DNA of 64,000 nucleotides from Candidatus Komeilibacteria bacterium (GCA_043801745.1 JAZDLR010000016.1:70331-134330), one strand, 5' to 3'. Counted from the first letter of the stretch, positions 13,933 through 61,420 are shown. A program made the numbers and translations. The notes: a model not told the origin generated them from the letters alone.

Positions 13933-13983
13933 GCGAGAGTAGTTTCGGCCAAAGGCCGATCCGCCTGTGGCGGACAGTGGTAG
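13933..13983 (+). pseudogene. tRNA-Gly 5' fragment (GCGAGAGTAGTT...CAGTGGTAG) interrupted by a 30-nt twin-hairpin insert
   Basis: Matches positions 1-12 and 14-22 of the intact tRNA-Gly 90 nt downstream. The twin-hairpin element is inserted in the D-loop. Confidence 0.5.
13943..13973 (+). repeat. twin-hairpin GC-rich repeat, copy A (TTTCGGCCAAAGGCCGATCCGCCTGTGGCGG)
   Basis: Two consecutive short palindromes. Related copies occur at 51697-51727 and 61389-61420. Confidence 0.6.
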
Positions 13984-14022
13984 GCCAGGTTGAATGGATG
14001 GTAGTAAAATATATTTTTTTAC

Positions 14023-14097
14023 GCGAGAGTAGTTCAGTGGTAGAACGTCTCCTTGCCAAGGAGAAGGTCGCGGGTTCGACTCCCGTTTCTCGCTCCA
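14023..14097 (+). tRNA. tRNA-Gly (GCC)
   Basis: Cloverleaf by eye. Anticodon loop TTGCCAA, T-loop GGTTCGACTCC, encoded CCA. Confidence 0.9.
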
Positions 14098-14350
14098 CCC
14101 TACGTTCAGCGAAGCTGAACTTCGGGTGGCCTTTGGCCACACGAATCGCCGTAGGCGAAGTAGGGTAGTCGCGCGTAGCCTTGGCGTAGTGTGACAGTGT
14201 TAAATAATTACCTCATGGGAGGTCTTATTTGTATCTAGGCAATAATTGGATTTCAGACTACAATTATTCCGCGCCTCTTTTTTAAAGACGAAAAGGGCAT
14301 ACACAAATAAATATCTTGCTTTTGCGTCTACCATATGATAAGATTAAATT

Positions 14351-57645: not shown

Positions 57646-60600
57646 CTAGCTACAGCCGGTGGTTTCGCCGCAATCAGCGCACAGCAGACAAGAGCCGTTA
57701 CGCTTCATTTTCATACTACCACAGGAACCGCATTGATCGCCGGTAAAGCCCTGTTGTCGGGCCGCATCTTTAACATCCAGGTCGGCCACTTTCTTATGTT
57801 CGCTATGTCCATTAGTTTGGAGGGTTACTGTCGTATGGCTTAAATCCATAGGCAGAGTTGGCTGCGGATCCTCGGGTTTATTTTGTACTAGATCAATCCG
57901 GTTGAGATACTCGAAGCCCAGAAGCCGGAAAACATAATCCATGATGGAAGTGGCCATTTTGATGTTAGGGTGACCTTGAATAACGCCGGCCGGTTCAAAC
58001 TTAGTATAGGTAAAGGTATCAACGTATTCTTCCAGCGGAATACCATATTGCAGTCCCTTGGAGATGGAAATGGCAAACATATTAACCAAGCTGCGGTAGG
58101 CGGCGCCCTCTTTATACATATCAATGAAAATTTCACCTAAGCGTCCGTCAGGATATTCACCAGTACGGACATAAACTTTATGTCCCCCAACTATTGCTTC
58201 TTGAACAAAGCCCTGGCGTTGATGCGGCAGCTTTTCTTGAACGCCGCGGCCGGCAGCCATTTGCTGAAATTCTTTGGGTCCCACAGTTTCGTCCACATCA
58301 TCGGCCATGGCGAGCTGAAGTAAGGAGCTTTCATCAGTAGTGGAGTTTAGGGGTTGGGAAAGTTTACTGCCGTCGCGGTAAAGAGCCACTGCTTTCAACA
58401 TATGGGTCCAGCTTTTTTCATGCACTGAAGCCACTTCAGCAATCGTAGCTTCATGAGGCATATTAATGGTCTTAGAAATGGCGCCGGACAAGAATGGTTG
58501 GGTAGCGGCCATCATCATAATGTGGGCATCATAAGGAATATAACGGGTACCGCCGGAGCCGCATCTATTGGCGCAGTCAAAAACCAGATAATTTTCCGGT
58601 CGCAGATGAGGCGCGCCTTCTAAAGTCATAGTACCAAAGATATATTCATTGGCTTGCTGAATTTGCTCGGGACTAAAACCTAAATGCTGCAAAACATTAA
58701 GTTTGGGATCAGTAATTTCTGCCGGAGTGAAGCCTAAGCGCAGTAGTGTTTGTTCGCCCAGGATACTGGCATTAAAAACAAAAGATAAATTCATGGCTGA
58801 AGCTAGAGCGGTCTCGATGTTAGCCAGATCTTTGTCGCTAAAGCCTAAATTGTTCAGGGATTCATTATTGATGTGAGGACTATTTTTTAGACTATTATGT
58901 CCTAAAGCATAAGTTTCAATTTCTTTGATCTGTTCCGGATTATAATTAAGACGCTTTAAGCCCTTGTGTACGCTACGGTTGATAATTTTCAGGTATCCGC
59001 CGCCGGCCAGTTTTTTATATTTAACAATGGCAAAGTCAGGCTCAATGCCGGTGGTATCGCAATCCATCACCAATCCGATGGTACCGGTGGGAGCGATTAG
59101 AGTTGTTTGAGCATTACGATAACCGTGGACTTCGCCCAAAGCTATAGCGCGGTCCCAACACTCCCGGGCCGCAGCAATCAGATCTCCGGGCGTATATTTT
59201 GGATCCAAGCCCAGCGGTTTGACCGTGAGATTTTCGTATTCTTGCGGCGTGGCATTGTAAGCGGCCCGGCGGTGGTTGCGCAAAACTTGTAACATGGTTT
59301 CGCGGTTAGCCGGGAAGCGCTCGAAGGGTCCGAGAACCGCGGCCATTTCCGCTGAAGTCGCGTAGGCTTCGCCGCTCATGATGGCAGTTATTGCCCCGGC
59401 AATATTACGAGCTGGCGAACTGTCATAAGGAATGCCCAGGGTCATTAAAATAGTACCTAAGTTGGCATAGCCTAAGCCGAGAGTGCGGTAGAGGTAGCTG
59501 TTCCAGGCCATTTGTTTGGACGGAAACTGAGCCATAAGAACGGAAATTTCTAAGGTGATAGTCCAGAGACGGACAGCATGCTGAAATTTTTCAATTTGAA
59601 ATTGTCCGCTGTCTTCATCCAGAAAATGCGCCAAATTGATGGAAGCTAAATTGCAGGCCGTATCGTCTAGAAACATGTATTCCGAGCAGGGATTAGAAGC
59701 GGTGATGGGTCCATCGTTGCTGCAAGTATGCCATTCATTGGCGGTGTCGTGAAATTGTAGGCCAGGATCAGCACAGGACCAAGCAGAATAATTTATTTTA
59801 TCCCACAATTGTTGGGCCGGTATAGTTTTGGCTACTTGTCCATCAGTGCGCCTAATTAATTTCCAATCTTTACCTTGGGCCACGGCTTGCATAAATTCGT
59901 TGGTCAACCGCACCGAATTGTTGGAATTTTGTCCGGCTACGGAAGAATAAGCCTCACCTTCAAAGTGAGTATCCTGTATGGGGTAAGAAAGAGAGGAATA
60001 ACCCTGATCGATTAGTCGTAGAACCCGTTCAATATAATTAAGTGGTGCGCCGGCAATGATAGCAGCGTGGATGGCCCGTTTAACTTTGGTACTTTTAGTC
60101 CAATCAGTAGTTTTCTCGGCAATGGCTGTAGTCATAATGTCATTGAGCTGGCGAGAATTAATTTGACTACCGGTTACTAAAGAGGCGACTTTCTGTTCCT
60201 CCTTCATTTTCCACTCAATAAATTCTTCTATATCGGGGTGGTCAATATCGACAACCACCATTTTAGCCGCGCGTCTGGTCGTGCCGCCGCTTTTGACAGC
60301 GCCGGCTGCCCGGTCAAAGATTCGCAAGAAGGACATTAGGCCCGAGGAGCGGCCACCGCCGGAAAGTTTTTCTTGAGCACCACGTAAGCTGGAAAAATTT
60401 GAGCCTGTACCTGAGCCATATTTAAAAAGTCTGGCTTCGCGCAAAACCAGATCGAAGATGCCGCCTTCATTAACCAGGTCATCGTTTAAAGATTGAATAA
60501 AACAGGCGTGCGGTTGGGGATGAGTATAAGCGTCGGCTGATTGGTTCAGATCGCGGGTTAGAGGATCAACAAAATAATGACCTTGTGGTGTGCCGGTTAT

Positions 60601-61365
60601 GCCGTAAGCATAGTGTAGACCGGTATTGAACCACTGGGGTGAATTGGGCGCACCCAATTGATGTACGAGCATATAGCTCATTTCATCCTCGTAAGCCTGG
60701 GCATCTTCCGGAGTAGCAAAATAATCATATTTTTCACCCCAGAAACGCCAGCAACCAGCCAGACGATGGACTATCTGCCTCACACTATGTTCAGGGCCCA
60801 GCACTGGTTTGCCTTGGGCATCGGTTAGGTAGTTACCTTGGTCATCGGTTTGCGGCACCCCGGCCTTGCGGATGTATTTTTGGGCCAAAATATCAGAGGC
60901 GACCTGTGACCAGGATTGCGGTACTTCAATATCCTTCATTTCGGCAACGACCGTGCCATCAGCATTACGGATAATAGAGGTGCGCAGCTCATAATCGATT
61001 TCCGCCAAAGGATCAACGCCCTGTTTGGTAAATAACCGGTTGATCTTCAGGCCCAGTCCCGCCCGTTGTATTGGCTCCAAGGGTAGTTTTTTGTCTTTAT
61101 GTAAAGAGTAAAAACGGGCTACTTCGGGTAATTCATTTTGCAGCAAAACCCAAGCCACCGCATTACGGACGTCTTCGGTAGTAATGTTGGCTATTTTTTC
61201 CGCCTCTTTTTCTAGTTTGGAAATAACCTCACAAGCGAATTGTTGCGGTAAGGGCTGTTCGAGAAGACCTTGAGCCGCCAGGATAAACTCCAGGCTGCGG
61301 GCTAATTTAAGGGCATCAAACTGCTCGAGCTGACCGCTGCGTTTTTTGATTGAGGAGAGAGGCAT
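57646..61365 (-). CDS. nrdJ: class II (adenosylcobalamin-dependent) ribonucleotide reductase, long monomeric form with C-terminal zinc ribbon
   Basis: ATP-cone N-terminus. NPCSEYMFLDDTACNLASINL active-site region. C-terminal CGSCGS...CLLCADCGETTGC. 1239 aa. Confidence 0.9.
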   Translation of the reverse strand: MPLSSIKKRSGQLEQFDALKLARSLEFILAAQGLLEQPLPQQFACEVISKLEKEAEKIANITTEDVRNAVAWVLLQNELPEVARFYSLHKDKKLPLEPIQRAGLGLKINRLFTKQGVDPLAEIDYELRTSIIRNADGTVVAEMKDIEVPQSWSQVASDILAQKYIRKAGVPQTDDQGNYLTDAQGKPVLGPEHSVRQIVHRLAGCWRFWGEKYDYFATPEDAQAYEDEMSYMLVHQLGAPNSPQWFNTGLHYAYGITGTPQGHYFVDPLTRDLNQSADAYTHPQPHACFIQSLNDDLVNEGGIFDLVLREARLFKYGSGTGSNFSSLRGAQEKLSGGGRSSGLMSFLRIFDRAAGAVKSGGTTRRAAKMVVVDIDHPDIEEFIEWKMKEEQKVASLVTGSQINSRQLNDIMTTAIAEKTTDWTKSTKVKRAIHAAIIAGAPLNYIERVLRLIDQGYSSLSYPIQDTHFEGEAYSSVAGQNSNNSVRLTNEFMQAVAQGKDWKLIRRTDGQVAKTIPAQQLWDKINYSAWSCADPGLQFHDTANEWHTCSNDGPITASNPCSEYMFLDDTACNLASINLAHFLDEDSGQFQIEKFQHAVRLWTITLEISVLMAQFPSKQMAWNSYLYRTLGLGYANLGTILMTLGIPYDSSPARNIAGAITAIMSGEAYATSAEMAAVLGPFERFPANRETMLQVLRNHRRAAYNATPQEYENLTVKPLGLDPKYTPGDLIAAARECWDRAIALGEVHGYRNAQTTLIAPTGTIGLVMDCDTTGIEPDFAIVKYKKLAGGGYLKIINRSVHKGLKRLNYNPEQIKEIETYALGHNSLKNSPHINNESLNNLGFSDKDLANIETALASAMNLSFVFNASILGEQTLLRLGFTPAEITDPKLNVLQHLGFSPEQIQQANEYIFGTMTLEGAPHLRPENYLVFDCANRCGSGGTRYIPYDAHIMMMAATQPFLSGAISKTINMPHEATIAEVASVHEKSWTHMLKAVALYRDGSKLSQPLNSTTDESSLLQLAMADDVDETVGPKEFQQMAAGRGVQEKLPHQRQGFVQEAIVGGHKVYVRTGEYPDGRLGEIFIDMYKEGAAYRSLVNMFAISISKGLQYGIPLEEYVDTFTYTKFEPAGVIQGHPNIKMATSIMDYVFRLLGFEYLNRIDLVQNKPEDPQPTLPMDLSHTTVTLQTNGHSEHKKVADLDVKDAARQQGFTGDQCGSCGSMKMKRNGSCLLCADCGETTGCS

Positions 61366-61388
61366 GGGCGGGGTTATTTAATAGTTAA

Positions 61389-61420
61389 TTTCGCCCATAG
61401 GGCGACCGCCCTGTGGGCGG
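61389..61420 (+). repeat. twin-hairpin GC-rich repeat, copy C (TTTCGCCCATAGGGCGACCGCCCTGTGGGCGG + TTTT)
   Basis: Second stem changed from CCGCC/GGCGG to CGCCC/GGGCG (compensatory). Lies in the nrdJ/cca divergent region. Confidence 0.6.

Follow-up and report, generated by a model that had tools for sequence, protein, structure and literature searches.

A 30-bp double-hairpin element inserted in tRNA remnants, leaders and coding sequences of the Candidate Phyla Radiation

Bacteria of the Candidate Phyla Radiation (CPR, or Patescibacteria) have tiny, streamlined genomes that are usually described as repeat-poor. In a 64,000-nucleotide stretch of DNA from a metagenome-assembled genome (MAG) of one such bacterium, Candidatus Komeilibacteria (GCA_043801745.1, JAZDLR010000016.1:70331-134330; hereafter the 64-kb window), we found three copies of a 30-bp double-hairpin element, here named E, which belongs to a family dispersed across the radiation. 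Copies of E sit as insertions in unrelated genes and are present in one genome but missing at the corresponding place in its relatives. We consider it reasonably probable that E is a selfish or mobile DNA palindrome that is copied and inserted, persisting where it is tolerated. A selfish or semi-selfish 30-bp element shared across the CPR would imply that these genomes are still being invaded and reshaped.

Structure and distribution of E

E is exactly 30 nt long and consists of two abutting 15-nt units, each of which comprises a 6-bp stem with G/C at its inner four pairs and a 3-nt loop (unit consensus (T/C)C-SS-CC, 3-nt loop, GG-SS-G(A/G)). Searching the window with the degenerate pattern TCGSCCNNNGGSCGAYCSSCCNNNGGSSG returned exactly three matches, compared with 0.01 expected from 100 shuffles, and these were the three twin-hairpin copies reported in a preliminary description of this DNA, at the same places and with the sequences quoted there; the TTTC with which that description opened each copy lies outside E, its TT being a preferred flank. 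We then scanned 185,579 species-representative genomes with the G/C skeleton fixed and complementarity not enforced, which gave 115 loci among the matches listed. Because the pattern was derived from this window and the loci are those among the matches listed, the diversity and host range reported here are lower bounds, and estimates of copy number are rough. At least 81 loci are true palindromic E, all on low-GC MAG contigs, and chance non-palindromic matches account for 32 GC-rich loci (GC > 0.6) and 2 low-GC loci among those listed. A family of only three copies, the possibility left standing by the preliminary description, was therefore an effect of the window: among the matches listed, E occurs across the whole CPR radiation.

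Pairing is nearly complete throughout the family. Hairpin 1 is fully paired in 84 of the 86 low-GC copies and hairpin 2 in 80 of them, whereas hairpin 2 is fully paired in only 4 of the 33 GC-rich matches listed. Among 47 distinct E sequences, 99.3% of the cells are paired, changes on both sides are found at four stem positions (G-C to C-G and U-A to C-G), and the covariation score of 0.273, compared with 0.088 in shuffles, was reached by none of 500 of them; when the partner column was shifted, the pairing was lost. The earlier proposal of a repeat family with compensatory stem changes is thus borne out, and its label of 'REP-like element' pointed to the right neighbourhood.

The two loops are related as well: loop 1 is almost always MRA and loop 2 is TYK, the reverse-complement class of MRA, and several copies are perfect 30-nt palindromes. 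Judged by its sequence, E is an inverted dimer of one polar hairpin unit, so that either strand, whether DNA or RNA, shows two hairpins in the same order, the first with an A-rich and the second with a U/T-rich loop. The stem subtypes TCGGCC, TCCGCC, TCGCCC, CCGCCC and CCCGCC are freely combined, with three different combinations in the window alone, and five copies have a U-G closing pair. Rfam contained no meaningful match for E at either gathering or permissive settings (E value up to 10). No GTAG/CGTC tetranucleotide tag was found at the ends of E, which read TCGG/TCCG...CCGA/CGGA; the GTAG present in some flanks is part of a tRNA D-arm.

Among the 81 listed E loci, 57 carry CPR labels, 17 are labelled 'uncultured Gammaproteobacteria', 1 'Phenylobacterium' and 6 'bacterium'. 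The CPR-labelled hosts among the matches listed span more than 20 lineages, including Saccharibacteria, Paceibacterota and Gottesman-, Komeili-, Falkow-, Roizman-, Shapiro-, Doudna-, Berkel-, Levy-, Kaiser-, Collier-, Giovannoni-, Moran-, Nomura-, Chisholm-, Portnoy- and Uhrbacteria. Because the arginyl-tRNA synthetase encoded on one of the 'Gammaproteobacteria' contigs (L009) has relatives that are all CPR-named, the 'Gammaproteobacteria' labels are probably wrong. The E-carrying contigs labelled Gammaproteobacteria or Phenylobacterium are L004, L005, L007, L009, L013, L020, L037, L041, L046, L058, L060, L070, L077, L090, L098, L111, L112 and L114; going by sequence, either their taxonomic labels are wrong or they have been mis-binned, probably. 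E may accordingly be of use as a compact CPR-specific sequence marker, having already exposed these mislabelled contigs. No cultured non-CPR organism with E was present among the matches listed, and viral contigs in IMG/VR yielded one GC-rich chance match only, with no sign of a phage vector.

All carrier genomes are MAGs, and an assembly artefact is unlikely given the independent studies and assemblers, the in-frame placement of copies and the restriction to certain lineages. Searches of the literature on the sequence, on CPR repeats and on CPR tRNA fragments turned up no description of E, and no paper among them has its core sequence in this context. We regard E as previously undescribed and as a new member of the small palindromic insertion repeats as a kind, distinctive in being exactly 30 bp long, an inverted dimer of a 15-nt unit, near-invariant across a bacterial radiation and frequent within coding sequence.

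Insertion of E into genes, leaders and tRNA remnants

Long open reading frames (ORFs) contain 34 of the 86 copies (~40%), and 27 of these 34 lie in phase 0 (TCG GCC ...; p = 5e-8 compared with one third). In this phase E encodes the peptide SAxG(R/G)SAxG(G/R) in either orientation (12 copies sense, 15 antisense). The homologues without E that were compared have a gap of 7–12 residues exactly at the position of E, and two proteins encoded in the window are themselves E-free homologues of E-carrying proteins in other genomes. For annotation, E accounts for recurrent 10-residue SAxGRSAxGG inserts, which are potential confusers of protein alignments and structure models.

A filled and an empty site could be compared directly between two genes of 67% identity, in which GGCTTT-(30 bp)-CTTTTT of L059 corresponds to GATTTT/CTTTTT of L006. 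The difference is exactly 30 bp, and E is therefore a clean insertion without target-site duplication. In the L009 lineage, E is present in 1 of 120 arginyl-tRNA synthetase homologues, and an 82%-identical orthologue has the residues KQL in its place, which indicates that this insertion event also removed 9 nt. The sequence preceding E is far from random: the 5′ flank is AGTT in 15 of 89 copies (17%, with a background of 0.4%) and TTTT in 15 of 89 (17%, with a background of 1.6%), position −2 is T in 64 of 86 copies, and positions +1 and +2 tend to A.

Many flanks had suggested a target-site duplication of ~7 bp, which was ruled out by the empty-site comparison and by the in-frame inserts of 10 codons, with which a 7-bp duplication is incompatible. 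Many intergenic copies lie within degenerate heptamer arrays (for example, of TAGAAGT or AGGAATT), and because such arrays also exist without E, as they do in front of T2SSE both in the window and in its relatives, we interpret them as preferred landing sites and not as footprints. The arrays are intergenic and lie upstream of promoters, at 54178-54210 and 13808-13840 in the window and at many other loci (with units such as CTTCCAA/CAACCCA and TAGAAGT). The orthologous T2SSE gene in relatives starts directly after a TGTTATAAT box, a position that suggests leaderless mRNAs.

The three window copies and the features around them are listed in Table 1. Copy 1 lies between nucleotides 12 and 13 of a 21-nt tRNA-Gly remnant, in its D-arm, in agreement with the earlier report of a copy inserted into the tRNA-Gly 5′ fragment. 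Copy 2 was correctly placed before tRNA-Arg, and in addition it follows nucleotide 8 of an 11-nt tRNA-Arg remnant, likewise in the D-arm, a point missed at that time. Complete tRNA genes stand 50–55 nt downstream of both copies and the remnants stop at about nucleotide 21, on which grounds we rejected a reading of these loci as split tRNAs or introns. Copy 3, described previously as a copy followed by a T-run between nrdJ and cca, does have TTTT directly after it; its neighbours are nrdJ (57646-61365, minus strand) and cca (61713-63260), and it falls within the nrdJ 5′ untranslated region, 25 nt upstream of the start codon at 61365. A role for E as an intrinsic terminator was rejected, since a T-run follows copy 3 alone, and copies 1 and 2 are each preceded by a promoter-like site and followed by a tRNA; for copy 3 such a role is unlikely because no plus-strand gene ends upstream.

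Table 1. Copies of E, related hairpins, tRNA remnants and promoter-like sites in the window.
Feature	Coordinates	Strand	Sequence or match	Context
E copy 1	13945..13974	+	TCGGCCAAAGGCCGA then TCCGCCTGTGGCGGA (TCGGCC-AAA-GGCCGA, TCCGCC-TGT-GGCGGA)	
E copy 2	51699..51728	+	TCGCCCATAGGGCGA then TCCGCCTTTGGCGGA (TCGCCC-ATA-GGGCGA, TCCGCC-TTT-GGCGGA)	
E copy 3	61391..61420	+	TCGCCCATAGGGCGA then CCGCCCTGTGGGCGG (TCGCCC-ATA-GGGCGA, CCGCCC-TGT-GGGCGG)	
Single 15-nt unit	35484..35498	+	TCCGCCTTTGGCGGA (second half of copy 2)	inside 53-nt 23S rRNA expansion
Single 15-nt unit	38098..38112	+	TCGGCCGTAGGCCGA	23S-5S spacer
Related single hairpin	30425..30441	+	TTCCGCC-GCT-GGCGGGA	in place of T-arm of decayed outer tRNA-Val
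Related hairpin, 4-nt loop	46874..46889	-	TCCGCC-TGAT-GGCGGA	beside 3′ fragment of tRNA-Ala(TGC), 46854-46867
tRNA-Gly(GCC) 5′-end remnant	13933..13983	+	nt 1-12 at 13933-13944, nt 13-21 at 13975-13983	exact matches to intact gene 14023-14097
tRNA-Arg(TCG) 5′-end remnant	51691..51731	+	GCGCCCTT (nt 1-8, 51691-51698), E, AGC	intact gene 51783-51859
Promoter-like site	13885..13912	+	TTGATT-16-TATTAT with TG; consensus match only	upstream of remnant, copy 1 and tRNA-Gly
Promoter-like site	51639..51667	+	TTGATA-17-TATAGT with TG; 10/12 matches	upstream of remnant, copy 2 and tRNA-Arg
nrdJ promoter-like site	61566-61538	-	consensus match	

Copies 1 and 2 are predicted to fold as RNA into twin hairpins (−19.2 and −19.4 kcal/mol, respectively, with z about −4) and as DNA into twin hairpins on both strands. 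Because the two units of copy 3 come close to being reverse complements, one long hairpin is predicted to be favoured there instead (−26.5 kcal/mol). All promoter calls are consensus matches only; with that reservation, all three copies are preceded by a promoter-like site with an extended −10 and followed by a mature RNA or a start codon, and should therefore be transcribed, as far as sequence tells, in the 5′ leaders of tRNA-Gly, tRNA-Arg and nrdJ (copies 1–3). The nrdJ leader (61425-61580, minus strand) has two NrdR-box-like palindromes, at 61514-61529 and 61545-61560, which are 31 nt apart and overlap the promoter-like site. Its segment at ~61425-61470, conserved in the related contigs L126 and L128, contains a hairpin with T7 at its end and looks like a leader terminator or attenuator. 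Copy 3 is downstream of both palindromes and of this conserved hairpin. The window as a whole contains 12 GC-only triloop hairpins with 5-bp stems, compared with 2.2 expected. A 23S expansion segment is another context of E.

Relatives of the window differ in which of these sites are occupied. We retrieved L126, L127 and L128 through their nrdJ homologues (86%, 76% and 78% identical, respectively). In L126, the closest relative, the nrdJ leader lacks E, and the region upstream of tRNA-Arg has neither the remnant nor E. L128 has the tRNA-Arg remnant without E, with the same promoter and leader upstream of tRNA-Arg as in the window, and its nrdJ leader also lacks E. L127 carries E in the nrdJ leader, where its order is flipped and its second loop has grown to 36 nt. 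In relatives, a different and weaker hairpin occupies this position of the nrdJ leader. The 24 kb of L126 contain no E, and nor do the 55 kb that come from ten other related contigs. A metagenome search with the neighbouring radical-SAM protein gave 10 related loci, at which the tRNA-Arg/Lys synteny is not conserved and E is missing.

E is enriched near tRNA genes, with 7 of 86 copies within 200 nt of one, compared with 1.9 expected (a count reached at most once in 1000 randomisations); six of the seven are upstream. In each case E occupies the D-loop in a fragment from the 5′ end of the neighbouring tRNA, immediately 3′ of ...AGTT, and five other genomes besides the window have E in D-loops of tRNA remnants. 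The remnants end at about nucleotides 21–25, which is the position at which promoter-plus-tRNA inserts interrupt resident tRNA genes elsewhere, and for this reason we take E to have entered the remnants secondarily. What lies upstream of the remnant in L006 is similar to the spacer in front of the intact tRNA gene, and this similarity suggests a local duplication of the promoter and tRNA nucleotides 1–22, with E in the upstream copy. We infer that the D-loop motif AGTT/GG is a favourite target of E and that only copies in dead fragments survive selection.

Possible origins of E and its likeness to known repeats

If E is a selfish or mobile palindrome, as we favour, new copies would be pasted as exactly 30 bp without target-site duplication, preferentially after AGTT or TTTT and sometimes with small local deletions. 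They would survive where the harm is small: in intergenic simple-repeat tracts, 5′ leaders, dead tRNA fragments, rRNA expansion segments and protein surface loops. In proteins, an insert of 10 codons would preserve the frame, and the favoured phase would encode a small flexible peptide. The window copies would be passengers, two of which would have entered the AGTT/CTT site in the D-arm of a displaced tRNA 5′ remnant. The compensatory changes in the stems would be explained by a need for each unit to keep its palindrome, so that it can act as a hairpin or cruciform when it is propagated or recognised. One candidate mover is a trans-acting, HUH/RAYT-like enzyme that would recognise both hairpins, the lack of strand bias and of guide sequences counting against the classical IS200/IS605 mechanism. 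The other candidate is enzyme-free template switching, in which the hairpin would stall the replication fork and short AGTT or T-rich flank homologies would guide entry and return, and from which occasional small target deletions would be expected.

Several observations weigh against a selfish or mobile E. The orientation of copies relative to local GC skew was unbiased (42:35, p = 0.49), which counts against a strand-specific single-strand mechanism of the IS200/IS605 type, the near-symmetry of E weakening this test. No mobilising gene was found, and none that is cis-linked, in a scan that covered few window ORFs and included no genome-wide search for RAYT; a GIY-YIG nuclease was rejected as the cis-linked enzyme, having a homologue near E at only 1 of 83 loci. 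Copy number is low, at roughly one E per 20–45 kb in carrier genomes. No insertion event was seen directly among the genomes compared. In addition, the copies are almost all perfect: E is 97–100% identical where the 120-nt homologous flanks are 64–87% identical, and at 70% identity the chance of at most 1 difference in 30 nt is 3e-4. These values come from one pair between genomes (L024/L063) and two pairs that are duplicated segments within one genome (L071/L095 and L092/L094); a second pair from different genomes (L012/L081), with E at one and the same site of a dnaK-like gene, combines identical E with diverged flanks, as judged by eye. Simple decay of junk does not explain perfect copies amid diverged flanks. 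Selection may be responsible, as may a copying machinery that homogenises the copies, or hot spots into which E inserts repeatedly.

The greater conservation of E than of its homologous flanks would also suit a cellular DNA site, in which the 15-bp dyads are bound by a CPR-conserved dimeric protein (a parS-like nucleoid or segregation factor) or act as a DNA-uptake signal and are kept by selection or uptake drive. Perfect dyad symmetry and a near-identical sequence across very distant CPR classes fit such a site, as do the failure to find a transposase and the lack of target duplication. E also occurs in both orientations, in coding and non-coding DNA and in a preferred reading frame, all of which hold for uptake sequences and parS sites. 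The uptake sequences of Neisseria (DNA uptake sequences, DUS) and Pasteurellaceae (uptake signal sequences, USS) are clade-wide, as E is CPR-wide, often form inverted pairs and are tolerated in coding regions. They are, however, 9–12 bp long, not palindromic themselves and arise mainly via point mutation, whereas E arises by 30-bp insertion in unrelated genes. They also occur at about one per kb, a density far above that of E, which has 3 copies in 64 kb here. Moreover, the window copies are missing in close relatives, with 24–55 kb of related DNA free of E, and other copies lie in rRNA expansion segments and dead tRNA fragments. We know of no protein that binds E, and the 64-kb window contains no canonical parS, which has no weight either way. 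On balance we find a cellular site unlikely.

The preliminary description had drawn from the compensatory changes a selection on pairing at the RNA level or on a dyad DNA site, and transcribed twin hairpins could in principle stabilise pre-tRNA and mRNA 5′ leaders or direct their processing, as an exonuclease barrier or a nuclease entry site. All three window copies stand between a promoter-like site and a mature RNA or start codon, the hairpins are predicted to be very stable as RNA, and the U-G closing pairs in five copies and the weaker hairpin that relatives have at the same place in the nrdJ leader are consistent with such a function, as is the mixed orientation of copies, because an inverted dimer gives the same two-hairpin RNA from either strand. 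But selection for RNA structure is not indicated when E is a DNA palindrome that folds alike on either strand and occurs in both orientations, and is weakened again by its 10-codon inserts in unrelated genes, missing in homologues, and by its patchy presence at orthologous sites. Some 40% of copies are inside coding sequence, with a frame bias that points to selection on the peptide and not on RNA; orthologous leaders work without E; no single-stranded nucleotide is conserved, and there is no Rfam family; and the predicted fold of copy 3 is unlike those of copies 1 and 2. An RNA module is thus quite improbable.

We give equally little credence to E as a by-product of tRNA-gene turnover, in which the hairpins would be collapsed terminal inverted repeats, or processing stems, of promoter-plus-tRNA cassettes that enter resident tRNA genes, and would mark sites of cassette insertion or deletion. 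Besides the enrichment of E near tRNA genes, this proposal draws on the unit-like GC-rich ends that bound nested tRNA-Lys and tRNA-Val inserts (CCTGCCCGCC...GGCAGGCGGGG and CCCGCCCGCC...GGGCGGGG), on the bounds of a nested tRNA-Arg in L128 (CCCTGTACT...AGTACAGGG), whose relative CTCTGTACC...GGTACAGGG is a closed hairpin in a tRNA-Leu remnant of the window, and on the E hairpin with a 36-nt loop in L127. Yet ~90% of copies are far from tRNA genes, many of them in frame inside proteins; E has a fixed 30-bp length and is built of two tandem hairpins, unlike a single stem that has lost its interior; and in the remnants it occupies D-loop positions 12–17, whereas cassette junctions are at 22–25. 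A broader scheme, which strikes us as speculative though somewhat less doubtful, sees the twin hairpins as one part of a system, common to the CPR, by which stable-RNA genes are continually remodelled. Promoter-bearing tRNA cassettes with GC-rich inverted repeats would insert into the D-arm or T-loop of a resident tRNA and replace it, leaving 5′ and 3′ remnants whose loops are then occupied by hairpin elements. Free-standing GIY-YIG and HNH nucleases beside tRNA genes would drive the process, as in intronless homing, and E would be either a minimal cassette without cargo or a disruptor of the nuclease target in remnants.

To return to E as a mobile palindrome, its closest counterparts in behaviour are the double-hairpin elements and GC clusters in the mitochondria of fungi, sponges, green algae and yeast, and the literature on Allomyces and yeast describes the same kind of element. 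To our knowledge, how these mitochondrial elements move is a long-standing unsolved question. A bacterial counterpart of this puzzle, in lineages with cultivated members, makes the mechanism testable. Like E, the mitochondrial elements consist of one or two adjacent GC-rich hairpins in an AT-richer genome, turn up between genes, in variable regions of rRNA and within coding genes, and are polymorphic between relatives. They differ in being organellar, unrelated in sequence and variable in length (26–79 bp or more), whereas E is found in bacteria, has a length of exactly 30 bp, is built as an inverted dimer of a 15-nt unit and varies little in sequence across a bacterial radiation. Such repetitive hairpin-forming elements have been reported in intergenic regions, upstream of tRNA genes and in rRNA and protein genes, with no known enzyme or function (PMC2800124).

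E also comes close to the Rickettsia palindromic elements (RPE) in its in-frame insertion into ORFs. RPE are palindromic repeats that lie in frame in protein genes, and also in RNA genes, of a reduced genome and encode a tolerated peptide, but they are about 100–150 bp long, confined to Rickettsia and unrelated in sequence, whereas E is 30 bp, encodes 10 residues and has CPR hosts. REP/BIME/REPIN sequences are GC-rich imperfect palindromes of 20–40 bp, clade-conserved and often arranged as inverted pairs; they are extragenic, carry a GTAG/CGTC tag, number hundreds per genome and, in REPINs, have a spacer. E shares with them the inverted pair of short GC-rich palindromes, yet it has no tag, is often intragenic, is present in few copies and has units that abut. 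Unlike a classical miniature inverted-repeat transposable element, which derives from a DDE transposase, E has no target-site duplication. In this it resembles the palindrome-associated elements derived from IS200/IS605, which have hairpin ends, do not duplicate their target and insert 3′ of a short specific sequence, as E does 3′ of AGTT or TTTT; those derivatives are longer, have guide sequences outside their hairpins and are strand-specific with respect to replication, whereas E has no orientation bias. REP/REPIN palindromes may be mobilised in trans by RAYT, a single-copy HUH enzyme (PMC3733652).

Possible turnover of tRNA genes and other stable-RNA features

The association of E with tRNA remnants points to an unusually rapid turnover of tRNA genes in the CPR, and several further features of these genomes touch on this subject. 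The window contains 10 tRNA genes, together with a 23S-5S pair that has no upstream 16S gene, and its nrdJ product matches a protein from a Candidatus Komeilibacteria MAG at 100% identity. At 51899-52148, a complete tRNA-Lys(CTT) gene (51974-52050) and an AT-rich stretch upstream of it are nested inside another tRNA-Lys(CTT), whose 5′ part (51899-51921) and 3′ part (52096-52148) join to form a perfect 76-nt cloverleaf. The acceptor and T stems of the outer and inner genes differ by compensatory changes, and the 174-nt insert has complementary GC-rich ends (CCTGCCCGCCGCTCGC ... GCGAGCtatgGCAGGCGGG); the arrangement is either a very recent gene replacement or intron-like. A nested tRNA-Val(GAC) at 30199-30452 comprises, in order, the outer 5′ half (30199-22), CCCGCCCGCC, an AT-rich stretch, an intact gene (30282-30358), GGGCGGGG and the outer 3′ part (30398-30452). 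The outer gene is dead, because a GC hairpin replaces its T-arm, and ARAGORN gave no match for it.

Across 49 CPR tRNA genes (from the window and L006, L057, L058, L070, L111, L126 and L128), 13 are accompanied, within 300 nt and on the same strand, by an exact copy of at least 12 nt of their own sequence, compared with 1.1 in the control. Different 'alleles' of tRNA-Arg(TCG) and tRNA-Lys(CTT) are present in the window, L126 and L128, and in L128 one lies inside the other. These patterns suggest rapid turnover of tRNA genes in the CPR, of which we found no description in the literature searched. A 5′ remnant of tRNA-Leu(GAG) lies upstream of that gene (window 47881-47954, minus strand), and its D-loop carries a different, longer twin hairpin, CCCTGAACT..AGTTCAGGG followed by CTCTGTACC..GGTACAGGG, the second of which closely resembles the CCCTGTACT...AGTACAGGG that bounds the nested tRNA-Arg insert of L128.

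Nuclease genes also neighbour tRNA genes. A free-standing GIY-YIG protein of 89 amino acids is encoded between tRNA clusters (47314-47583, minus strand), and an HNH endonuclease gene (14351-14824, plus strand) stops exactly where tRNA-Leu(TAA) begins. In L070, a GIY-YIG gene of 34% identity (6703-7030) lies between tRNA-Ala and an E-carrying tRNA-Ala remnant, and its frame runs into E. These genes may encode homing-type nucleases associated with tRNA genes.

The 23S rRNA (34601-37819) is ~300 nt longer than the bacterial model, and one 53-nt expansion in it, at about 35457-35509, holds the half-element listed in Table 1. The 5S gene (38205-38322) is flanked by GGCGGGCAAG ... CCTGCCCACC, the same GC-rich motif as at the bounds of the nested tRNA inserts, which may be a processing stem.

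Outside the window, a conserved element of ~90 nt lies 3′ of at least five tRNA genes (L058 776-2860; L126 18480-18605). It consists of a hairpin TCGAGCTnAGCTCGA, then TGAATCAAA, GAYGAGAAGCCTGCCCYGAGCG, a variable hairpin and GTCGARGGG, and ends with a 19–20-nt duplicate of the 3′ end of that tRNA, from AATCC of the T-loop through CCA; Rfam had no match for this element in L058. A family of small hairpins, GTCAC..AGCCTTGGCG..GTGAC, is likewise found downstream of tRNA genes, at 14176-14200 in the window and at 18268-18300 and 18425-18450 in L126. Finally, the 11-mer GCCAAAGGCTG forms a tandem pair after tRNA-Arg in the window (51863-51884).

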